47,785 bases of DNA from a virus (lineage: Duplodnaviria > Heunggongvirae > Uroviricota > Caudoviricetes), in the IMG/VR virus record IMGVR_UViG_2529292853_000006. The stretch is one strand, 5' to 3'. The notes beneath the pieces are model-generated. The model worked only from the letters and a program-made list of their open reading frames with translations. It searched no databases and was not told the origin of the DNA. Positions 4,440 to 31,652 of the stretch are shown here, piece after piece. Made by a program: the position numbers and the translations under genes. Every line of letters starts with the position of its first letter. Positions within the stretch are counted from its first letter, which is position 1.

Positions 4440-4753
4440 CTACACACACTGCTCCTGAAAATACTGGTCATCCAGTGCAAAGATCACTGCTTCAAATTCA
4501 TCGCGCTCAATCAATACCGGATGAGTGGTTAAATATTCATTTATCTCTGTCAGAGATAAAGGCAAAGGCACCCCAGCCATTCCAGCATAACGTCGGGCAC
4601 GGGATATTACCGAATAGGCGTACAACAACTCCTTAAGCACCGGGTCTATTTCTGGTTCCGGTATCGGTGGCAACCTGAGTTTTTCTCGCTTCCATCTTGC
4701 CTTTTCCCCCCTTTCTCCCCCGAACTCCGATAACCACCGCTGGGCAGCTATGG
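4440..4753 (-). CDS. tail assembly chaperone, T segment of the G-T -1 frameshift product
   Basis: Frame is open from the slippery site to the stop at 4440 and is -1 relative to G; lambda G/G-T paradigm. Confidence 0.7.
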
Positions 4754-5209
4754 CTTTTTTATCGTATCCTGCTTCTGCTGCTCTTTACCCTGGGCGATGC
4801 TGGCTGCTTCTGCAAGGATCTGCCAGTACAACTCTGGATTCTGCTTAAGCAGCGCGATCCCTCGTTCTGCCGTATATTCCAGTGCAACCTCAACACCATT
4901 AACCAGTTCACCAACCCCTTTCCAGTCTTTCAGCAGATAACGAGCGGCATTATCAATGAGTAAATCATCAACAGAATCCACCTCGGAAACCTTTGAAATA
5001 TCAAACTCCTTCGTTCCGACGTGCAAACTGGCATCCATTTTCTCAATGTGGCGACGGATTAATGCATTACGGGAGCGATACTGATCGTTATCGCTGCTTG
5101 CCACCAACAGTTTTAACCCGTCTACAGGTTTTAAGTCCTTCATTGGCGTAAACCAGCGTTCTACACCAATGATAATTTTCTGATTAAGAATAAACATCCA
5201 TAACCTCAT
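4748..5209 (-). CDS. tail assembly chaperone (gpG-like)
   Basis: 153-aa acidic ORF between the major tail and tape measure genes, ending in the slippery site. Confidence 0.75.
   Translation of the reverse strand: MRLWMFILNQKIIIGVERWFTPMKDLKPVDGLKLLVASSDNDQYRSRNALIRRHIEKMDASLHVGTKEFDISKVSEVDSVDDLLIDNAARYLLKDWKGVGELVNGVEVALEYTAERGIALLKQNPELYWQILAEAASIAQGKEQQKQDTIKKP
4754..4760 (-). other. programmed -1 ribosomal frameshift slippery heptamer A AAA AAG
   Basis: Minus-strand sequence GAT ACG ATA AAA AAG CCA TAG at the 3' end of the G-like ORF; X XXY YYZ motif; shifted frame is continuous with the T ORF. Confidence 0.7.
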
Positions 5210-12629: not shown

Positions 12630-13940
12630 TTAAATCCGAAGTGATGTGACTCTTCCGGTCGGTTTGACAATAGGGAATTGCTTAACGATGAAATAACCTC
12701 CGGCATCATTCGGGTGATCATTGCCAGATTTTTTATCAGGCTCCCCCTTATCATCCCAGACCTGTTGCTCCAGAGATTCGGCATATACCGGACAACGCTT
12801 CACATTAACTTTATAGCGACGCTCACCATTGGCATTGCAGAACATTGCATTCATTGAGTTAACGCGATCTTTTACTGGCGGGTTCGAGCTGTTCACCACA
12901 ACGTTAAAACCTGCCTGCTTAAGCTGGGCTATATCCGTCGTACTTGCGTTACTTGATTTTCTGGAATCTCCGGAAGCATCTGGATAAATATAAATCTCCC
13001 TCACTTTCCGGTAATCATGCCCGTCATACAGCCAGAAGCGTTCTTTAATGAGGCGGATCATATCCGGCGTATCGTAGGCATTGATGATTTCAGTTACCGC
13101 ACATGGAAGCCCCAAACGCAGCACATGGACGATTCCCGCCATCTTTCCAACGTTAAAATCCATCCCAATATAAATCGGCTCCCCTGGCTGCTCCACTTCT
13201 TCGCAATTATTCAGTTTCCGGTCAAACTGATGGTAAACAGTACCACTTGTCAGGTTAGTAAACCGTCCTAGAAGATAGGCTTTAATCAGCTCTGGAGGGT
13301 ATGATTCAAGAAGTGAAGGAATGTAATCTGCTGGCAGGTTCTTTTCATTATCGAAAGTAGATGCCTGCACCAGACCATACAGTGAGGCCAGATCTGTTTT
13401 TTCACGCACGGCTTTAACAAACTGCTCGTAGACAAATTTGAATCCTTCCGGCGTGGTTGTAACGTCAATACCGTTGCGAAGTCCATCAATCTTATAACGC
13501 ATACGCGCAATTATCTTGCGCCACGCCGTTCTGGCTTTTTCCTTCGGCAAAATGTCCAGTTCATCCACCAGCGCATTACCAATTTTGAAACCGACGATCG
13601 TTTGTGGCTTCTCCATCGATCTGCAGATAGTGGTTCCCCGATACTGGCGTCCGTAATAAAAGTGAACCTCTTTATTTCCCTCATTAATTTTTACGTTCAA
13701 TCCCCAGTCAGCAGCAACTTCTTCCACTGTAGGGTAAAAAATATCGCGAATTTGGGGATACGTTGGCGCAAAATATCCCTGATTTATACCTGGATGCTCC
13801 CAAATCCCCTTGCATATGCCGCCACACCCAACCCATGTTTTGCCCGAGCCAAAACCAGCAATATAGGCTTTAAATTTATGGGGCATTGAAAGAAATCGCG
13901 CCTGAGGCACATTAAGCGTCGGAGAGATCATCTTCATCAC
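12630..13940 (-). CDS. terminase large subunit
   Basis: 436-aa ORF with Walker A-like GFGSGKT and a C-terminal nuclease-type acidic region. Confidence 0.9.
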   Translation of the reverse strand: MMKMISPTLNVPQARFLSMPHKFKAYIAGFGSGKTWVGCGGICKGIWEHPGINQGYFAPTYPQIRDIFYPTVEEVAADWGLNVKINEGNKEVHFYYGRQYRGTTICRSMEKPQTIVGFKIGNALVDELDILPKEKARTAWRKIIARMRYKIDGLRNGIDVTTTPEGFKFVYEQFVKAVREKTDLASLYGLVQASTFDNEKNLPADYIPSLLESYPPELIKAYLLGRFTNLTSGTVYHQFDRKLNNCEEVEQPGEPIYIGMDFNVGKMAGIVHVLRLGLPCAVTEIINAYDTPDMIRLIKERFWLYDGHDYRKVREIYIYPDASGDSRKSSNASTTDIAQLKQAGFNVVVNSSNPPVKDRVNSMNAMFCNANGERRYKVNVKRCPVYAESLEQQVWDDKGEPDKKSGNDHPNDAGGYFIVKQFPIVKPTGRVTSLRI

Positions 13941-15006
13941 TCCTTAATCTGGCATCAACCACATTAATATTGATCGCCACAGGCTGGGGATGTTCATTAT
14001 CCTCCACCGTTTCGATCTCTTTGCGCAGCTTCTGGTTCTCTATTCTGCGCCGTTCAATTTCCAGTTCCTGTAGCCGCTTATCTGCACATAATGCCCCGCC
14101 AGCAGAAAGCAAACGCAACAATTCACGCCGGGCGGCAGCCTTATCCTCCAGCAGGATCTCAACACCGTATTTTCCGAGCTTTGACCCTGCATATAATTGC
14201 CGCGCATCCCCATCAAGCAGTGTGGTATCAGCCATATAAAGCTGTCCTGTTCCCTCACCGCAGCACTTCGGGCAATCAGGATTGGGTATGGCGTTATCAA
14301 CAAAGCCGAGGCCTCCATATTCCGGCTCGGGTTTACCATCTCTGGAGGCCTGTGCCGCAGCCTTATCGAATTCTGCAATATCACGCCACTGGTAGAGATG
14401 ATTCTCGCCCCAGCAATAACGGCAGTTAACACGGCGAAATTGTGCCAACTGATTGGGGTCGGCCTGGACAATGGCCATCAACTGGCTCACCAGTAAATCC
14501 AGGTCTGCGGTATAGCGTTTCTGGTACTGATTGCGGAAGTAGCTGATAGCACGATAAACCCTGGCATTTCTAAGCATACGGCTGGCGTTGCTGTTAGCTG
14601 TCGCACCTTGCCCCTCATAACCAGCCAGTCGGTATGCCTCTGTCGGCTTTTTCCCCTGAGCAACCAACATGGCGAATTTTGCCTGCTGGTCAGAAATACC
14701 GAATTCATCGGGGCAGAACGAAATTTCTTCCGTGTCCCCCTCAATCAGGAGTGCATCGGATACAGCCTTTTTTTTCTGAGATTTTCTGTTCTGCCTTTGC
14801 GCAGTCTGCGCAGTTTTTTTTCGCGCACTTTTTTGCGCAGTTTTGCGCATTTCTTTCTGCGCATTTTTCGGAGTTTTTTTGATGTAACGACGGGCTGTTG
14901 CGTAGTTCAGTCCCCTTGCTTCACACCATGCCACCGGAGATATACCGGAGCGGGTGTATTCAGCAATATACTCCTGCTGCAACGCCCCCCAGTCCGGTCT
15001 GCTCAT
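13912..15006 (-). CDS. terminase small subunit-like DNA-binding protein
   Basis: 364-aa ORF overlapping terL; N-terminal HTH-like segment, lysine-rich low-complexity linker encoded by TGCGCA repeats, Cys-x-x-Cys pairs. Confidence 0.55.
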   Translation of the reverse strand: MSRPDWGALQQEYIAEYTRSGISPVAWCEARGLNYATARRYIKKTPKNAQKEMRKTAQKSARKKTAQTAQRQNRKSQKKKAVSDALLIEGDTEEISFCPDEFGISDQQAKFAMLVAQGKKPTEAYRLAGYEGQGATANSNASRMLRNARVYRAISYFRNQYQKRYTADLDLLVSQLMAIVQADPNQLAQFRRVNCRYCWGENHLYQWRDIAEFDKAAAQASRDGKPEPEYGGLGFVDNAIPNPDCPKCCGEGTGQLYMADTTLLDGDARQLYAGSKLGKYGVEILLEDKAAARRELLRLLSAGGALCADKRLQELEIERRRIENQKLRKEIETVEDNEHPQPVAININVVDARLRSDEDDLSDA

Positions 15007-15009
15007 CAG

Positions 15010-15261
15010 TTAGTCCTGATTTTTATCCACCCTGAGTAGTTCGCGCAGAGCAAAGGCATCCCCTTTTCTGGCAAGCTTAAACAATGCCGCTCGTAACTCG
15101 GCTTCACCTTTCGCTCTGCCCTTACGGATGGCCGCATAAAAATCTGTCATTGCTTCCCGATTTTCTTTCAGTCGGTTCAGATCAACATCCAGAACGTCAG
15201 CGATTTGTTGTGCAGTCATCCGGCACGCTGCCAGAGACTCGACTTTCGAATACGGAATCAT
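15010..15261 (-). CDS. hypothetical small phage protein
   Basis: 83-aa ORF overlapping the upstream gene end; start uncertain. Confidence 0.3.
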   Translation of the reverse strand: MIPYSKVESLAACRMTAQQIADVLDVDLNRLKENREAMTDFYAAIRKGRAKGEAELRAALFKLARKGDAFALRELLRVDKNQD

Positions 15262-16129
15262 TTGTCACCCCCATTGATATGCAGGGTGTCTTCTTCCTGT
15301 ATTTTTCGTGAAGGATTTTTACTGCAGCGTTGTTCCAGGTGACCTGATGGTGAATGCGTTTATGGCTGGCACCCATCAGTGAGATTTTTACGCACGACGG
15401 CGAATACATGACGGAGTAAAAACTTTTAACGTAGGTTCCGGAATCCAGATACAGCTCGGTCATTCCGCCGCTGTTTTTCTGCGTCTGTTTCTGCCCTAAC
15501 TGGACAGCACCGATCGTCATAAACAATTCACCACAGCGACCGAGATTCGTGTACGTATTCACATCCTCGTTAATGCGCCCCATGAATGAGAACGGTCGAT
15601 CAACCGAACAGATAAAGCTGTTCATTGCCTTGCGTTTCACCCACGAAGCATGGCCGCCATTGTCACCAAGAAAATCCCCGCCCTGCGACATAGCGATGGA
15701 AAGCGCGGGTATTGATTCGTAATACGCCAGCATTTCAGAAAGGATCGCATCCAGTTTCCTTATCGGGAAATAGGCCTGGTCATAGTTGCGATCCACCCGA
15801 AACTGGAACTCGTGATAATCATCATCGAGCTGAATGAAGTATTTACACCCGACCAGTTTTGCCAGGTCGAAACAGGCATTACGGGCGTAAAAAATTGAGC
15901 GGCGATCACCAAAATTATCGGCTTCGTCAAAACGACTGGCAATATCGGCTTTGGAAAATACCAGCACCTGTTCACCAAATTCAGCCATGTACTGATGCCG
16001 TGTCTTATCTTCATCATCAACAACGATAAAAATTTTCCCGGTATAGCCAGCACGACGCAACGTCCGGTAAGTCAGAACTTTGTCCGGTCGCCCGTGAGTC
16101 AGAATAAAGGCGCAAAAATCATCACGCAT
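15197..16129 (-). CDS. GT-A fold glycosyltransferase-like protein
   Basis: FILTHGRPD...KIFIVVDDEDKT and YFIQLDDDY resemble the GT-A Rossmann core and DxD motif; no C-terminal TM helices; start at ATG 16129 (or 16153) overlaps the ParB-like stop. Confidence 0.5.
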   Translation of the reverse strand: MRDDFCAFILTHGRPDKVLTYRTLRRAGYTGKIFIVVDDEDKTRHQYMAEFGEQVLVFSKADIASRFDEADNFGDRRSIFYARNACFDLAKLVGCKYFIQLDDDYHEFQFRVDRNYDQAYFPIRKLDAILSEMLAYYESIPALSIAMSQGGDFLGDNGGHASWVKRKAMNSFICSVDRPFSFMGRINEDVNTYTNLGRCGELFMTIGAVQLGQKQTQKNSGGMTELYLDSGTYVKSFYSVMYSPSCVKISLMGASHKRIHHQVTWNNAAVKILHEKYRKKTPCISMGVTNDSVFESRVSGSVPDDCTTNR

Positions 16130-16916
16130 ATTCCTCCTCCTCCTCCCCGCCATGCATGATCTCCACCATGCGCTGCGTCATTCGGACAAATCCATTTTCA
16201 ATAGCCTGCTGATAATCAATGATCACCAGCGCCGACTCCTCGAAAAGGCACTGAATTTCAGCGGGGGCATGAGCGTAATAGTCCGCAATTCTGCTGAAAT
16301 TAAACACTGTGTGACGTTCTGCCGCACACAGGAGGAATTTCTCAATATCAGGATCAAGGGACGCCGAACGTATCCGGCTGATCAGCTCCTGAGTTTTCGT
16401 ATCGTCGTACAGTTCACTGATATCCGGTTTACCGCCCGACGGCTCATAAACAGGCGTATCAATTTTCGTCGTATACGGCTCCTCCTCATTTCCTGTACCG
16501 GGCAAAACATCCGTCAACAGTTCATCAATTTCTGTCGGGATGAAGCCTGTCAGGGAGACATCAAAATCAGCATTGATTAGGTCCGACAGCTCCATCCGCA
16601 ACAGATCTTCATCCCAGCCAGCATTCATCGGCAGGCGATTATCTGCCAGGCGGTACGCCTTTTTCTGCTCATCCGTCAGGCCAGACAGAACAATGACCGG
16701 AACAGAATCCATTTTGAGCATTTCAGCCGCCATAACACGACCGTGACCCGCAATAATTTCGCCCTTTTCGTCAATCAGCACCGGATTAGTCCAGCCGAAT
16801 TGCTTAATACTTTCTACCAGTTGTGCCACCTGCTCAGGGCTGTGCGTCCTGGCGTTGTGCGCATACGGTGACAATTCTTGTAATGGGCGATAGACTATCT
16901 TTAATTTCTCGCTCAT
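16122..16916 (-). CDS. ParB-like nuclease domain protein
   Basis: N-terminal ParB/Srx motif (IDEKGEIIAGHGRVMAA); acidic poly-Glu C-terminus; no methyltransferase domain. Confidence 0.75.
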   Translation of the reverse strand: MSEKLKIVYRPLQELSPYAHNARTHSPEQVAQLVESIKQFGWTNPVLIDEKGEIIAGHGRVMAAEMLKMDSVPVIVLSGLTDEQKKAYRLADNRLPMNAGWDEDLLRMELSDLINADFDVSLTGFIPTEIDELLTDVLPGTGNEEEPYTTKIDTPVYEPSGGKPDISELYDDTKTQELISRIRSASLDPDIEKFLLCAAERHTVFNFSRIADYYAHAPAEIQCLFEESALVIIDYQQAIENGFVRMTQRMVEIMHGGEEEEEYA

Positions 16917-17053
16917 ACAGCCTTGCTTTATGAATAAAACGCACCCCAGCAGCCAGTGCTACTGGGGACGGAGGGGTTGCTGGTAAAGTTAGGTATTGGA
17001 TCAATGAGTGAGTCAACATAATATTAAACTCACAATTATAAATCAGCCATATA

Positions 17054-28307: not shown

Positions 28308-29585
28308 CTATGGTTTTTTATTAGAATCTTCGCCACTAAATAAATTATAATAAATTGATTTTATTAGATATCTGTCAGAATCTATATGGTCAGCACGAGT
28401 AGCATGCTCTAATGTTTCAAATGCTAGGGTTTGTGCGGCTTCAGCAAAAATTCCAGGCCAACCCTTACTCAGCATCGACAGTCCTTTAAGTACCCTTATC
28501 TGAATTTCCCTCATACTGGCACCATCGCGCGCAACAGGTGAGAAAAAGTCTTCAAGTAGATCGTTATTCTGAAGTGGTGCAACATGTACAGAAGGATATT
28601 TCACTTCTATTTCATCAGATTTATTCTGCGCGTAAGCGGAAAGTATACGTACACCTCTGCCAATGACATCAATGGCGGTTCCAGGATCGTTCACTGCGGG
28701 GGAAAGGGCTCGGCAGGCTATTTCGGCCATGACGCTAAGACAAAATCGGGGGTCCTGAGCAAATGAACGTACATCCGAGACAATAATCGTCTCAAGTAAA
28801 TCGGTGCTGATTGATGACTCCTGGCCCTGACTCAGGTACAAAACTGGCGTGGACGGATGTATGAAACTGCCCGGCTGCGCCACGAGGTATACATGACGGG
28901 GATCATTGGTCAGCAGCTTGCTGAGTTTCACCATATCAACATATTCAATATAGCCAATCTTTTTCGGATAAACTGCAACCGTTCCTTTCGGCTGTTCATT
29001 GTTCTCAAGCCATGGATATCCGCCGAGACAGGGATTTCTTGCTCTCGCAATAAATGTTTCGATGGCCGCCTGTTCTACTTTTGCCGTTGTCTCACCAACC
29101 CTCCCCAGAGAGGTCAAATGCTGTATCCAGCGAAGCAATGTGATGAGGATTAAGGCAATGACAACCAGTGTTACAATGAATAAAATGACTCTCCCCCTTT
29201 CTCCATAAGCTCCCATATTGAGGGCAATAATCCCTACCAGACTGAAGAGAAAAGAACCGATGAAGGTGGCCAGTACATTTTGTGTGGTGACGTCTTCAAC
29301 AACTAAACGAGTAGCTCTGGGAGTCACATTAGTAGTGGCTGAACCGTAGGCTGTGACCATGATGCTCAGCGAAAATGTGGTCACTGCCAGCATACTCGAT
29401 GCCAGTATGTTCAGAATGTTATCGACTGCTTCCGCACCAACCTTCACGGAAACCGACTCAGGTATCATTGATTTAAAAAGAATTGATAAAAGGGCCGTTA
29501 TTATTGCGACAATTGCGAATAACGTTGCCCTGAACCATAGTTTTTTAAATGTCTGCTTCAGCATCCATTTCCAGCGTGAAATCAT
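28308..29585 (-). CDS. DUF2254-type predicted membrane protein
   Basis: N-terminal multi-TM region plus soluble C-terminal domain; start chosen at the internal Met with GAGGGA SD (ORF track gives 29600). Confidence 0.55.
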   Translation of the reverse strand: MISRWKWMLKQTFKKLWFRATLFAIVAIITALLSILFKSMIPESVSVKVGAEAVDNILNILASSMLAVTTFSLSIMVTAYGSATTNVTPRATRLVVEDVTTQNVLATFIGSFLFSLVGIIALNMGAYGERGRVILFIVTLVVIALILITLLRWIQHLTSLGRVGETTAKVEQAAIETFIARARNPCLGGYPWLENNEQPKGTVAVYPKKIGYIEYVDMVKLSKLLTNDPRHVYLVAQPGSFIHPSTPVLYLSQGQESSISTDLLETIIVSDVRSFAQDPRFCLSVMAEIACRALSPAVNDPGTAIDVIGRGVRILSAYAQNKSDEIEVKYPSVHVAPLQNNDLLEDFFSPVARDGASMREIQIRVLKGLSMLSKGWPGIFAEAAQTLAFETLEHATRADHIDSDRYLIKSIYYNLFSGEDSNKKP

Positions 29586-29620
29586 TCTGCATTCCCTCAT
29601 ATTGCAGCCGGGATAAATAA

Positions 29621-29641
29621 ATGCCGCCTCTGTGGCGGCAT
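29621..29641 (-). terminator. intrinsic terminator after the BCCT transporter gene
   Basis: ATGCCGCC-tctgt-GGCGGCAT perfect hairpin followed by UUUAUUUAUCC on minus-strand RNA. Confidence 0.55.
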
Positions 29642-29648
29642 GTTGCTG

Positions 29649-31652
29649 TTAACGAACCAGATGCAGGAAGTGCAGGTGTTTTTCGTACTGGTCCAGTATG
29701 TCATTAATCAGCTGTTCCTGATTCCAGCCCATTACATCATAATTTTGGCCGCCCTCTTTGAGATAGACTTCAGCGCGATAATATCGATGTTGTTCACTCT
29801 GCTGCTCATCATTATCCAGCGCAGCGAGCGCGAAGGTCGGTGAGTTATACCCGCGAAGCCTCACTTCATATATATAATTCAGCTCGTTGCCCAAATCGAC
29901 TTCAAGGCGAATACGATCCTCGGCGGCGTCACTGATGTGGCTTATCGTTCCCTGCTTGTTAAGTTCCTCCTGAACCAGCGTCATGGCGGGGTGGATAATG
30001 TCGTCCATAAAACGTTTCACAAGAGAGCGCTTCGGCAAATACGCGATATTGCGTAACCTTCTCTGCCAGGGAATTGGGTTACGTGCAGCCGTAGGAGCAA
30101 TAGTCGCCATGCTAAGGCTTTCACGCTTGGTCAAATCCCGACGCAGGGCTTTTAACAGTCCGTATATGGATATTAATAAGATAACTGAGAAGGGCAATGC
30201 ACTCGCTATCGTTACGGTTTGCAACGCACTCAGCCCCCCTGCGATCAGCAGGGCAATAGCAACAACGCCCATGAGCGATGCCCAGAAAATTCGCTGCCAG
30301 ACGGGCGTGTTTGCCACCCCACCTGATGCCAGAGTATCCACAACCATTGCCCCCGAATCAGCAGACGTTACAAAGAAGACGATGACCATCGCCATTGCAA
30401 TGAATGACAGCACGGAAGAGAACGGGAAATGCTCCAGGAAATTAAACAGGGCAAGCGCAACATCCTGCTGAACGGTATTGGCGAGGTCAGTGGCGCCCTG
30501 GTTCATGATGAGATAGATGGCGCTGTTTCCAAACACCGTCATCCACATGAGCGTAAAGCCGGCGGGAACAAACAACACGCCAGTCACGAACTCACGAATT
30601 GTCCTGCCGCGGGAAACGCGTGCAATGAACATACCTACAAACGGCGACCATGAAAGCCACCATCCCCAGTATAATAATGTCCAGCCCCCCAGCCAGTTGC
30701 TCGACTTGGGTTCATACGCGTAAAGGTTGAACGTTTTACTCACCAGTTCCGACAGATAACCACCCGTATTTTCCACAAATGACTTCAGCAGAAGCACAGT
30801 GGGACCCAGGCACAAGACCAGCGCCAGGAGCAACACCGCCAGGCCCAGATTAAGCTCAGACAGGATGCGTATTCCCTTGTCCAGGCCGGACACCACCGAA
30901 ATCGTCGCTAACCCCGTGATGACCACGATCAAAATGACCTGTACCGTTTCATTGATGGGCACGCCGAAAAGATGGTTCAAACCGGCATTCACCTGCAATA
31001 CACCGTAACCCAGCGATGTTGCAACGCCAAAGACAGTGCCTATCACGGCGAAGATATCAACCGCGTGGCCTATAGGCCCGTAAATGCGATCGCCGATAAT
31101 GGGATAGAGCGCAGAACGCAGCGTTAAAGGCAGACCGTGACGGTAACTGAAAAAGGCCAGAATCAGCGCCACGATGGCATAAATTGCCCATGCGTGCAGA
31201 CCCCAGTGGAAGAACGTCAGGCGCATGGCTTCCTTCGCTGCCGCAACGGTCTCTGGAGTGCCGACAGGTGGCGAAAGATAATGCATCACAGGTTCGGCAA
31301 CGCCAAAGAACATCAGGCCGATCCCCATCCCTGCCGAAAAAAGCATCGCGAACCAGGAGTGGTAGCTGAAATCAGGCTGCGCATGGTCTGGGCCCAGCTT
31401 TATATCACCGTAACGTGAGAGTCCAAGGAACGTGACGCTCAGTAAAATCAGGGCCACAGCAAGTATGTAGAACCAGCTGGCATTCGTGAAGATTTGTTGC
31501 TGAAGTAGTTTAAAATTTTTGTCGGCGACATCCGGGAATACGGCGGCAAAGGCGACAAGAAGGAAAATTAGCAAAGCAGATGTAAAGAATACCGCTTTGT
31601 TAATCTGGCTTGTAGACTTCTTTGGGGTTGTATCATTTTCACTCATAATCAT
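29649..31652 (-). CDS. BCCT-family transporter (BetT-like)
   Basis: 667 aa; strong similarity along the length to E. coli BetT as recalled, including the C-terminal ILDQYEKHL.F.HL motif; no betABI nearby. Confidence 0.85.
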   Translation of the reverse strand: MIMSENDTTPKKSTSQINKAVFFTSALLIFLLVAFAAVFPDVADKNFKLLQQQIFTNASWFYILAVALILLSVTFLGLSRYGDIKLGPDHAQPDFSYHSWFAMLFSAGMGIGLMFFGVAEPVMHYLSPPVGTPETVAAAKEAMRLTFFHWGLHAWAIYAIVALILAFFSYRHGLPLTLRSALYPIIGDRIYGPIGHAVDIFAVIGTVFGVATSLGYGVLQVNAGLNHLFGVPINETVQVILIVVITGLATISVVSGLDKGIRILSELNLGLAVLLLALVLCLGPTVLLLKSFVENTGGYLSELVSKTFNLYAYEPKSSNWLGGWTLLYWGWWLSWSPFVGMFIARVSRGRTIREFVTGVLFVPAGFTLMWMTVFGNSAIYLIMNQGATDLANTVQQDVALALFNFLEHFPFSSVLSFIAMAMVIVFFVTSADSGAMVVDTLASGGVANTPVWQRIFWASLMGVVAIALLIAGGLSALQTVTIASALPFSVILLISIYGLLKALRRDLTKRESLSMATIAPTAARNPIPWQRRLRNIAYLPKRSLVKRFMDDIIHPAMTLVQEELNKQGTISHISDAAEDRIRLEVDLGNELNYIYEVRLRGYNSPTFALAALDNDEQQSEQHRYYRAEVYLKEGGQNYDVMGWNQEQLINDILDQYEKHLHFLHLVR

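Follow-up and report, generated by a model that had tools for sequence, protein, structure and literature searches.

The intact Rac prophage of Escherichia coli carries, between trkG and the terminase genes terS and terL, two adjacent genes on the minus strand, the first for a 264-aa ParB-like protein and the second for a 310-aa glycosyltransferase (GT), and the question raised by this locus is what such a pair might do at this place in a phage genome. The original prediction proposed a DNA glycosylation or anti-restriction module, or a packaging accessory. The window, the whole stretch of 47,785 nucleotides that was analyzed, takes its annotation from a collinear RefSeq genome (15 positions differ over the first 41.8 kb of the window), which puts Rac at ttcA and gives the gene order Rz, trkG, ParB-like gene, GT gene, small ORF, terS, terL, portal, in agreement with the predicted position of the pair. 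The features of the locus are as follows.

16122..16916, minus strand: ParB-like/domain-X gene, 264 aa, an ORF that is the full-length form of K-12 ynaK
16512..16916, minus strand: ParB/Srx-fold N-terminal domain of nucleotide-binding type, residues ~1-135, with motifs N21-x-R23, G57-H-G-R60, and D92-N93
16149..16484, minus strand: domain X, residues ~145-256, a conserved linear motif followed by a domain of five to six helices
16440..16475, minus strand: invariant YTTKIDTPVYEP motif, residues 148-159, from alignments, within a low-confidence linker
16131..16145, minus strand: poly-Glu codons GAGGAGGAGGAGGAA at the 3' end of the ParB-like gene, also the Shine-Dalgarno sequence of the transferase gene
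16122..16129, minus strand: stop/start overlap ATGCGTGA, 8 nt, read from the sequence
15197..16129, minus strand: TAGT-family GT-A glycosyltransferase gene, 310 aa
15010..15219, minus strand: small ORF, 69 aa as annotated or 83 aa from the first ATG, with a 23-nt overlap with the 3' end of the transferase gene
12630..15006, minus strand: terS (15006..13912) and terL (13931..12630), directly downstream, from Pfam Terminase_2, phrog_51, and RefSeq annotation
16944..16967, minus strand: terminator-like hairpin after trkG, a 10-bp stem with 7 G-C pairs, then TGCGTTTTAT

The hairpin lies 28 nt upstream of the ParB-like start codon, and because it furnishes trkG with a terminator-like element of its own, trkG looks like a cargo gene inserted in the prophage late region. 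The small ORF at 15010..15219 is similar to one segment of a small terminase subunit (positions 145-218 of the 319-position phrog_309 profile, E 8e-23). No parS-like repeats or repeated palindromes were found around the two genes, and no parA is annotated in the prophage. The suggestion that the degraded genes after trkG in K-12 Rac are remnants of this pair held for the first gene only: YnaK (87 aa) matches ParB-like residues 1-86 with 98% identity over 86 residues, the last aligned position differing, and ynaK corresponds to the first 85 residues of the ParB-like gene, whereas the TAGT gene is deleted in K-12. The gene ydaY is not a remnant of the GT gene but a tail-region gene at window positions 4748-5107.

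The two genes are joined at the level of translation. Plus-strand positions 16122-16129 read TCACGCAT (minus strand, ATGCGTGA), so that the ParB-like stop codon TGA overlaps the GT ATG in the predicted 8-nt overlap, and plus-strand positions 16131-16145 are the reverse complement of GAGGAGGAGGAGGAA, the poly-Glu codons supplying AGGAGG ~6 nt before the ATG, again as predicted. The longest GT ORF could begin eight codons earlier, at 16153, but all 15 aligned homologues share the MRDDFC start, and we therefore place the start at 16129, with a length of 310 aa. A stop/start overlap of 4-20 nt, most commonly 11 or 8 nt, is found in 56 of 63 loci, and purine-rich GGAGG-type tails precede the TAGT start in many unrelated loci; translational coupling is thus real and conserved across loci. 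Both genes are under purifying selection, with dN/dS of 0.05-0.07 for the GT gene and 0.10-0.14 for the ParB-like gene.

Residues 8-222 of the transferase score 121.6 bits with the Pfam profile TAGT (PF20691; curated cut-off 27.5), which places the enzyme in the family to which known phage DNA glycosyltransferases belong (PMC13216743, PMC13390438). The GT-A motifs FILTHGRPD, KIFIVVDDEDKT, and YFIQLDDDY are present as described, and structure comparison returned the GT-A (single Rossmann-like) fold, the absence of which had been named in advance as grounds for rejecting the idea; the C-terminal half of the structure model is of low confidence. R14, D102-D104, E188-D189, and Y193 are invariant in 15 TAGT sequences with identity down to 61%, and these R...DDD...NED..Y residues fit the "R...DDD...EDY/F" active-site motifs of phage GT-A enzymes for which glycosylation of 5hmC in DNA has been demonstrated (bioRxiv 10.1101/2023.12.21.572611). 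This clade carries a conserved C-terminal extension of ~60 residues beyond the Pfam model; NCBIfam holds no model for the transferase, and a TAGT profile found no match among PDB sequences. Tandem TAGTs occur at some loci, and one TAGT is fused to a class I SAM methyltransferase, an arrangement that recalls known DNA hypermodification clusters.

Glycosyltransferases of prophages may also act on the cell envelope, and the position of the pair beside trkG, a likely cargo gene, would suit an enzyme that alters a surface glycan in the manner of GtrABC lysogenic conversion or of the prophage wall teichoic acid transferase TarP. The predicted lack of transmembrane helices proved correct, however, the two proteins peaking at 1.25 and 1.08 in 19-residue Kyte-Doolittle scores where TrkG reaches 2.62, and with no hydrophobic segments and no GtrA flippase or similar neighbour the locus does not resemble a GtrABC-type membrane-bound system. 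The pair is also part of the late operon, its upstream member is ParB-like in fold, and the phages that carry the pair infect Gram-negative, Gram-positive, and CPR (candidate phyla radiation) bacteria as well as archaea, hosts that share no envelope glycan, all of which renders an envelope target so improbable as to be nearly negligible.

The upstream protein is the expected 264-aa ORF (16916..16122), with IIAGHGRVMAA at residues 54-64, a C-terminal end reading GGEEEEEYA, and, as foreseen, no methyltransferase domain, Pfam giving ParB_N only (28.9 bits against a cut-off of 26.3). It matches phrog_620 (E 1.5e-90), and both the profile match and the fold of the N-terminal domain place it in the ParB/Srx superfamily (PF02195), with N21-A-R23, G57-H-G-R60, and D92-N93 as predicted nucleotide-binding motifs. 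It does not have the full architecture of a partition ParB: the match to TIGR00180 covers residues 11-94 only and reaches 38.5 bits against a cut-off of 58.45. The term "nuclease" in the original prediction was a historical family name that did not survive comparison, the closest structures being NTP-binding ParB/Srx proteins, with no nuclease-type relatives in the fold search. The ParB_N domains most similar to this one are found in fusions with DNA methyltransferases. In the PADLOC defence libraries, the ParB part alone matched a methyltransferase model and the transferase matched nothing, and the pair is not a catalogued defence system. A ParB_N domain is present in ~85% of diverse genome loci (42/49); the Box II arginine is gone from it in some orthologues, and many phages do without the domain altogether, so that a ParB clamp cannot be essential.

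It is domain X rather than the ParB domain that accompanies TAGT throughout. This C-terminal helical domain of ~110 aa, with its invariant YTxK..P.YEP motif, is encoded directly upstream of TAGT at 51 of 51 genome loci (49 with an intact X and 2 with a frameshifted X) and at 76 of 76 viral loci, the counts taking in loci of this clade, from bacterial phyla and archaeal viruses, that have a full intact TAGT and upstream DNA. Even in a P. gingivalis phage whose TAGT is only 27% identical the linkage persists (hhalign probability 97.5%), and one locus has two tandem X+TAGT pairs. Mean identity is 47% for X and 49% for TAGT, and divergence is correlated with that of TAGT to a greater degree for X (r 0.63) than for ParB_N (r 0.44). 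In many phages domain X is a standalone protein of 130-147 aa with no ParB domain, and it comprises 1,384 clusters at 50% identity. The so-called solitary TAGT enzymes of this clade are not solitary, domain X being always alongside. Y148, P155, Y157, P164, K174, R201, H202, Y214, Q222, E226, and D234 are invariant in 51 sequences; the domain has no Pfam family and no PDB match by sequence or fold, a profile search of PDB sequences yielding armadillo-repeat and coiled-coil noise only. Natural X-TAGT fusions were sought and none was found: long E. coli variants proved to be deletion chimeras with terS or portal, and where X-bearing proteins extend further at the C terminus, the extension is a Lys- or acid-rich tail and not a transferase. 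An N-terminal [FY][ND]LFG motif occurs in 108 of 122 standalone X proteins, and clamp genes adjoin; as a comparable motif, DFGF, is retained at the equivalent place in ParB-fused forms, a clamp-binding motif in standalone X is a lead only.

The motif in domain X bears on the nature of the acceptor. The YTxK..P.YEP linker is predicted with low confidence (pLDDT below 50 at residues 139-152 and ~60 at residues 151-160), and a partner that carries an invariant, disordered, hydroxyl-rich linear motif could itself be the substrate, by self-priming as in glycogenin, its peptide being the likeliest protein acceptor, or the enzyme could glycosylate some other phage or host protein. The structural neighbours of the transferase include glycogenin and GT-A enzymes that modify proteins, no pathway to a DNA acceptor is linked to the pair, and GREB1, a eukaryotic TAGT-domain protein, has been reported to glycosylate a protein, which also counts against a DNA acceptor. 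On the other hand, a docking motif would explain the invariant peptide equally well, ParB_N domains of this type occur fused to DNA methyltransferases, the pair is found in the replication module of large phages, and the characterized phage members of the TAGT family act on DNA; we consider protein glycosylation unlikely.

The distribution of the pair is broad and its neighbourhoods are informative. It is found in thousands of phages and is conserved from E. coli to Bacteroides, Veillonella, Clostridia, and archaeal viruses, the carriers of the cassette including temperate phages of E. coli, Salmonella, Bacteroides, Lactobacillus, and Veillonella, large gut phages, and haloarchaeal viruses. 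In most prophages it is immediately upstream of terS/terL, and in Lactobacillus phage c5 it follows the cos site directly, an arrangement that would suit a packaging accessory in which the ParB-like protein marks or cuts DNA near pac or cos for terminase and the transferase is secondary; Iyer et al. 2013, as cited in PMC8256090, suggested that ParB directs modification during packaging. However, the terminase genes that the pair abuts in prophages belong to at least five unrelated families, which argues that the cassette entered where modules meet and did not co-adapt with a single packaging machine, and standalone X+TAGT is found far from terminase genes, amid those for polymerase, clamp, dUTPase, RecA, primase, and helicase, in gut phage contigs of 105-137 kb and in a 191-kb Vibrio phage. 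Given also that the constant element is X+TAGT and not ParB_N, and that the fold search gave no nuclease-type relatives, the proposed tie to packaging was not borne out as such and a packaging role is highly improbable.

With the TAGT family holding the known phage DNA glycosyltransferases, and with coupling conserved, a DNA glycosylation or anti-restriction module is the best-supported reading of the pair; that part of the original prediction stands, with DNA as the acceptor inferred. Against it counts the observation that there is no linked enzyme to make the hydroxyl acceptor used by every characterized DNA glycosyltransferase. By annotation, the window has no TET/JBP, thymidylate-synthase-like, or dCMP hydroxymethylase genes; the complete genome of phage c5 (31.8 kb) has no annotated precursor-making gene, and none recurs among 185 neighbouring ORFs of 32 diverse loci. 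The transferase might nevertheless perform a second step, on 5-hydroxymethylcytosine, 5-hydroxymethyluracil, or a glycosylated base made by an enzyme encoded elsewhere in phage or host. Every characterized member of the TAGT family works in this way, the TET-associated and T-even enzymes included, and a 2026 study reported that divergent dioxygenase-like sequences missed by the Pfam TET/JBP model number in the thousands. No candidate for such an enzyme was found in the whole Rac prophage, however, any more than among the neighbouring ORFs. The hypothetical ORFs of phage c5 that were checked are ~155-210 aa, and a 5mYOX-type dioxygenase would, as a rough expectation, be longer. E. coli makes 5mC and 6mA and is not known to make hydroxymethyl bases. 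We judge such a second-step role decidedly unlikely.

We propose, at about an even chance and by analogy with the ParB-dependent phage thymine dioxygenases, that the pair is a self-contained two-subunit DNA glycosylation module. The TAGT protein would be the catalytic subunit, a metal-dependent GT-A enzyme using a nucleotide-sugar, and the upstream protein its obligate partner, in which domain X would bind or activate the transferase or give it acceptor specificity, while the ParB/Srx domain, optional across the family, may keep the complex attached to double-stranded DNA, conceivably by acting as an NTP-dependent clamp. Because the pair is transcribed with the late operon, we suggest that in Rac the concatemeric phage DNA would be modified after replication and just before packaging, and virion DNA would then enter the next host with sugars that may block restriction or other nucleic acid-targeting defences. 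We infer all three of complex formation, DNA as acceptor, and a protective role. As there is no hydroxymethyl-pyrimidine pathway, the acceptor would be a canonical or host-modified base or another position in DNA. More tentatively, and as a possibility that we hold to be doubtful, X+TAGT may glycosylate DNA with no hydroxymethyl precursor at all, adding sugar directly to a canonical or methylated base or another DNA position, with X supplying DNA or base recognition. We know of no precedent for direct glycosylation of canonical DNA, which counts against the DNA module.

All phage DNA glycosylation known to date is a second step, carried out on pyrimidines that have already been hydroxymethylated, and the X+TAGT cassette travels without a precursor-making gene; direct glycosylation of unhydroxymethylated DNA, if true, would constitute a new chemical class of DNA modification, obtained from a two-gene cassette. 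Recent surveys recorded "solitary" TAGT homologues in 288 of 753 GT-encoding phage genomes and no linked precursor pathway in ~65% of GT contigs (PMC13216743; bioRxiv 10.1101/2023.12.21.572611). If the pair does glycosylate DNA, the reading of restriction, BREX-type, and glycosylase-type defences against temperate phages would change. Of 5,426 complete E. coli genomes, 867 contain at least 80% of the 2.1-kb region, making experimental work feasible in the best-equipped model host. Our search of the literature found no characterized ParB/TAGT pair without a dioxygenase and nothing useful on ynaK or on the halovirus HHTV-2.

Among known systems, phage TAGT GT-A enzymes glycosylate 5hmC made by a C5-methyltransferase and TET (Burke et al. 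2021, PMC8256090; bioRxiv 10.1101/2023.12.21.572611). The TET-associated glycosyltransferases share with the present enzyme the Pfam family, the GT-A fold, the R...DDD...ED(Y) motifs, and a phage-borne location with ParB-like and terminase genes noted nearby, but here there is no linked methyltransferase, TET/5mYOX, or thymidylate-synthase-like gene, a domain-X gene always precedes, and the C-terminal extension is present. The association with a TET/JBP dioxygenase from which the family takes its name was not encountered in the prophage, in phage c5, or at the 32 loci. The T2/T6 enzyme, by which glucosyl-hmC DNA receives a second glucose, belongs to the same Pfam family (PMC13216743) and likewise adds sugar to phage DNA, and PHROG 842 and RefSeq phage annotations label the transferase beta-glucosyl-HMC-alpha-glucosyltransferase. 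That enzyme, however, requires hmC DNA and prior alpha-glucosylation, neither of which is possible in this prophage, where neither the T-even hmC pathway (dCMP hydroxymethylase) nor an acceptor-supplying glucosyltransferase is annotated. T4-like relatives are distant: tblastn at E 1e-5 matched one T4-like phage only, Aeromonas Ah1, at 24.7% identity, and what precedes the Ah1 homologue is not a domain-X gene, while the T-even-type enzyme of Klebsiella phage PKO111 ranked 30th in the fold search at 13% identity. For this transferase, then, the inherited T-even product name is misleading.

Phage ParB-DNA methyltransferase fusions (phrog_498; PADLOC MTase_II; Kaljevic et al. 2025, PMC12704722) have the most similar ParB_N and a pre-terminase prophage position; in those proteins ParB and enzyme are one chain, whereas here ParB is fused to domain X and the transferase is encoded separately. 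A phage ParB-like protein with no DNA-binding domain is required for the action of its cognate thymine dioxygenase on double-stranded DNA (PMC13229309), and that system, 5mYOX176/ParB176 (O'Toole et al., PNAS 2026, PMC13229309), likewise sets an HTH-less ParB-like protein, made up of a nucleotide-binding domain and a C-terminal domain, beside a post-replicative DNA-modifying enzyme, often near terminase genes. The enzyme here is a glycosyltransferase and not a dioxygenase, and the ParB domain is dispensable across the X+TAGT family, whereas ParB176 needs both domains. Linkage, overlap, and correlated divergence show that in Rac and its relatives, too, an HTH-less ParB-like protein is co-inherited with an enzyme of DNA-modifying type, and the cassette, as a defined two-protein system, extends the recently recognized principle of ParB-like proteins as partners of DNA-modifying enzymes.

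Both genes are encoded on the minus strand, in a full-length Rac prophage that is integrated beside ttcA. The gene order was taken from a collinear RefSeq genome, which shows 15 mismatches to the window in the first 41.8 kb; there the prophage runs through intR, xisR, ralR, recT, recE, kilR, sieB, an immunity/replication region, and a cargo island to lysis genes, trkG, the pair itself, a small ORF, terS, terL, the portal gene, and head and tail genes. The two genes are as follows.

16916..16122, minus strand: ParB-like gene, 264 aa, containing IIAGHGRVMAA and ending in GGEEEEEYA
16129..15197, minus strand: transferase gene, 310 aa

The ParB-like stop codon overlaps the transferase ATG within the octamer ATGCGTGA, and an AGGAGG about 6 nt ahead of this ATG is formed by GAG/GAA codons of the acidic tail. 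The longest possible transferase ORF starts 8 codons earlier; we place the start at 16129 because the MRDDFC start is kept in all aligned homologues. With dN/dS values of 0.05 to 0.14, the two genes are strongly constrained by purifying selection in E. coli. The original prediction described the ORFs, motifs, stop/start overlap, Shine-Dalgarno sequence, and lack of hydrophobic segments correctly throughout. Since neither protein contains a hydrophobic segment, modification of the envelope by this transferase is highly improbable.

Several features of the surrounding DNA were also recorded. Between trkG and the ParB-like gene, 28 nt ahead of the start codon of the latter, lies a strong terminator-like hairpin with a 10-bp stem and then TGCGTTTTAT (window 16944-16967, minus strand), from which trkG seems to be self-contained cargo placed within the late operon, with antitermination letting transcription pass through it. 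The small ORF between the transferase gene and terS (window 15010-15219) matches the middle of small-terminase phrog_309 (profile positions 145 to 218 of 319) and, on this match, may encode an additional, or a split, HTH protein of small-terminase type ahead of the 364-aa TerS. A non-phage cargo block (window 24334-31646) between late-regulation and replication genes carries genes for DUF1971, an MFS transporter, gamma-glutamylcyclotransferase, a LysR regulator, DUF2254, and a BCCT transporter, and immediately upstream of the lysis cassette (window 20074-20880) are two small genes for TolA C-terminal-domain-like proteins, one of which carries the annotation tolA fragment.

The transferase belongs to Pfam PF20691 ("TET-associated glycosyltransferase"; TAGT), scoring 121.6 bits against a cutoff of 27.5, and matches PHROG 842 with an E value of 1e-103. 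The residues invariant among aligned homologues, R14, D102-D104, and N187-E188-D189..Y193, are the counterparts of the R...DDD...EDY/F motifs in phage GT-A enzymes whose transfer of sugars to 5hmC in DNA has been demonstrated. The E. coli protein has a C-terminal extension of about 22 to 25 residues (ISMGVTNDSVFESRVSGSVPDDCTTNR; window 15197-15261) that is missing from other enterobacterial orthologues (about 285 to 290 aa) and runs into the next ORF; the overlap is 23 nt with that ORF as annotated and 65 nt if it is read from its first ATG.

Residues 1 to 135 of the upstream protein form a ParB/Srx domain predicted with a pLDDT above 90, for which PadC, KorB, pNOB8 ParB-N, and sulfiredoxin were the nearest solved structures by fold search. 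The NxR, GxxR, and DN motifs are kept, and the best profile matches are the ParB parts of phage ParB-methyltransferase fusions; nothing beyond an old family name backs the "nuclease" label attached to this protein originally. A partition ParB was rejected, as TIGR00180 fell below its cutoff and covered residues 11 to 94 only; no parA is annotated in the Rac prophage, and there are no parS-like repeats around the pair.

Beyond the ParB domain, a disordered acidic linker leads to an invariant peptide, YTxK..P.YEP (residues 148 to 159), and a small helical domain extending to about residue 256. This peptide and helical domain, together termed domain X, include the invariant residues R201, H202, Y214, Q222, E226, and D234; no Pfam family covers domain X, and no solved-structure relative was found by sequence or by fold. 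Its profile recovered 1,384 clusters at 50% identity from 1.84 billion representatives. Domain X lies at or near the C terminus in nearly all of the best 150 matches (proteins of 119 to 346 aa), and most of the best database matches are standalone proteins of 130 to 147 aa that have no ParB domain. These standalone proteins (P0241-P0360, P0361-P0510) have a near-invariant start, [FY][ND]LFG[IV] or QLF, with "LF" in the short leader of 108 of 122, resembling the QL[SD]LF sliding-clamp-binding motif; a comparable motif, DFGF, occupies this position in ParB-fused forms. Directly upstream of standalone X, two groups of gut phage contigs encode a beta-clamp homologue (PF00712; 30.7 and 25.4 bits).

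L047:4441-5559: clamp-adjacent standalone-X locus, gut phage contigs
L142:5841-6974: clamp-adjacent standalone-X locus, gut phage contigs

The original prediction also supposed that degraded forms of both genes follow trkG in K-12. This holds for ynaK, whose 87-aa product matches residues 1 to 86 of the ParB-like protein (98% identity), and fails for the transferase: ydaY, directly after ynaK in K-12, is in the intact prophage a tail-region gene about 11.5 kb away, so that domain X, the transferase, the terminase, and head genes were lost in one deletion. In-frame chimeras in other degraded Rac prophages of E. coli assemblies (ParB-like::TerS, TAGT::TerS, and TAGT::portal; P0004, P0008, P0122, and P0158) mark ynaK through the head genes as a zone of recurrent deletion, of which K-12 is one example. 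At least 80% of the 2.1-kb region was found in 867 of 5,426 complete E. coli genomes. RefSeq/PGAP often labels the intact 264-aa gene "ynaK, pseudogene, incomplete, missing C-terminus" (window 16659-16916; genomic loci L001 and L002) in strains 100% identical to the window over this region, apparently because the truncated K-12 YnaK serves as the reference; the transferase in these strains is annotated as "hypothetical" or "GREB1-related protein."

Linkage was assessed with a search seeded by a TAGT homologue alignment, which gave 59 genome loci from many phyla and 80 viral contigs; the genome loci span Enterobacteria, Bacteroidota, Veillonella, Clostridia, Verrucomicrobia, Kiritimatiellae, Spirochaetes, Ignavibacteria, and Saccharibacteria, together with archaeal MAGs. 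Where TAGT was full length and 450 nt or more of upstream DNA was available, an intact X-bearing gene lay directly upstream in 49 of 51 genome loci and all 76 viral loci, the two exceptions having a frameshifted X. Stop and start codons overlap in 56 of 63 diverse loci, most commonly by 11 or 8 nt. The pair is carried by the cultured Lactobacillus phages c5, LL-Ku, Ld17, phiLdb, and phi jlb1, by Nocardia phage NTR1 and haloarchaeal virus HHTV-2, and, with standalone X, by 191-kb Vibrio phages. X is retained in the upstream ParB-like protein of a P. gingivalis phage (hhalign probability, 97.5%) although TAGT identity there is only 27%; a T4-like Aeromonas phage encodes a TAGT homologue at 25% identity that is not preceded by an X gene. 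Across 41 loci, mean pairwise identities were 47% for X, 49% for TAGT, and 34% for the ParB N-terminal domain, and distances for TAGT correlated better with those for X (r = 0.63) than with those for the ParB domain (r = 0.44). One locus holds two consecutive X+TAGT pairs (L034:4460-6906), suggesting that each transferase has its own cognate X; in another, TAGT is fused to a class I SAM methyltransferase and followed by a second TAGT (L033:2614-6161). The tandem-TAGT and TAGT-methyltransferase variants look like glycan-tailoring additions. Elsewhere, a methyltransferase-like domain is fused ahead of the ParB-X protein (L022:189-1739).

In prophages, the pair is followed by terminase genes, small and large, that represent at least five unrelated families, and then by portals; its upstream neighbors are heterogeneous (replication, recombination, or lysis genes). 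The cassette thus occupies the boundary between early and late modules in many phage backbones that are unrelated to one another. Standalone X+TAGT lies inside the replication module of 105- to 137-kb gut phage contigs and Vibrio phages, among polymerase, sliding clamp, dUTPase, RecA, primase, and helicase genes. A packaging accessory, as originally offered, would suit the terminase-side position and not the replication-module loci, and is very unlikely.

We consider a two-subunit, DNA-directed glycosyltransferase to be the best-supported reading, with DNA glycosylation standing at about an even chance. TAGT would be the catalytic subunit, domain X an obligate partner acting as activator, acceptor-specificity subunit, or tether, and the ParB domain an optional DNA-holding module; as the pair is expressed late in Rac, the target would be replicated DNA that has yet to be packaged. 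Single-chain models are poor for three conserved parts, the YTxK..P.YEP motif, the SALVIIDF stretch of X, and the C-terminal half of TAGT, as would fit an interface that orders on binding. The original interpretation was right in direction and incomplete.

The weak point of the DNA reading is the acceptor. To our knowledge, every characterized DNA glycosyltransferase requires a hydroxymethyl or hydroxyl group, and no gene of the pair or its context can make one: TET/JBP, thymidylate-synthase-like, hydroxymethylase, and recurrent methyltransferase genes were absent, with one C5-methyltransferase among 185 neighboring ORFs at 32 loci. No precursor-making genes were found in the Rac prophage, and none is annotated in the complete 31.8-kb genome of phage c5, in which the pair forms ORF1 and ORF2 directly after the cos site. 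One way out, a part of the DNA reading that we hold less likely than not, is that the cassette performs chemistry not yet seen on DNA, modifying precursor-free DNA directly. Another is that the substrate is not DNA, in which case the first protein candidate to consider is the invariant Tyr/Thr motif of the partner itself; protein glycosylation is nevertheless unlikely. What is glycosylated is directly testable in E. coli.

Among known systems, the T2/T6 enzyme adding a second glucose to glucosyl-hmC belongs to TAGT (PMC13216743); a comparable second-step role for this transferase, with the precursor enzyme unlinked, is quite unlikely. "Solitary" TAGT homologues occur in 288 of 753 GT-encoding phage genomes, their function being termed "yet-to-be defined" (PMC13216743), and about 65% of GT contigs lack a precursor pathway and were judged less obviously tied to DNA modification (bioRxiv 10.1101/2023.12.21.572611). 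The pair is a member of a recognized class that has no assigned function, and what is newly defined is the obligate partnership with domain X; the literature searched contained no account of a ParB/TAGT pair without a dioxygenase, and none of domain X. Phage GT-A enzymes that glycosylate 5hmC are encoded beside a C5-methyltransferase and TET (PMC8256090; bioRxiv 10.1101/2023.12.21.572611), and ParB-like and terminase genes are listed among the neighbors of phage GT-A genes (bioRxiv 10.1101/2023.12.21.572611). Iyer et al. (2013), as cited in PMC8256090, are credited with suggesting that ParB guides modification machinery at the time of packaging. The most relevant precedent is a phage ParB-like protein, composed of a nucleotide-binding domain and a C-terminal domain without a DNA-binding domain, that its cognate thymine dioxygenase needs in order to act on double-stranded DNA, as reported in 2026 (PMC13229309).
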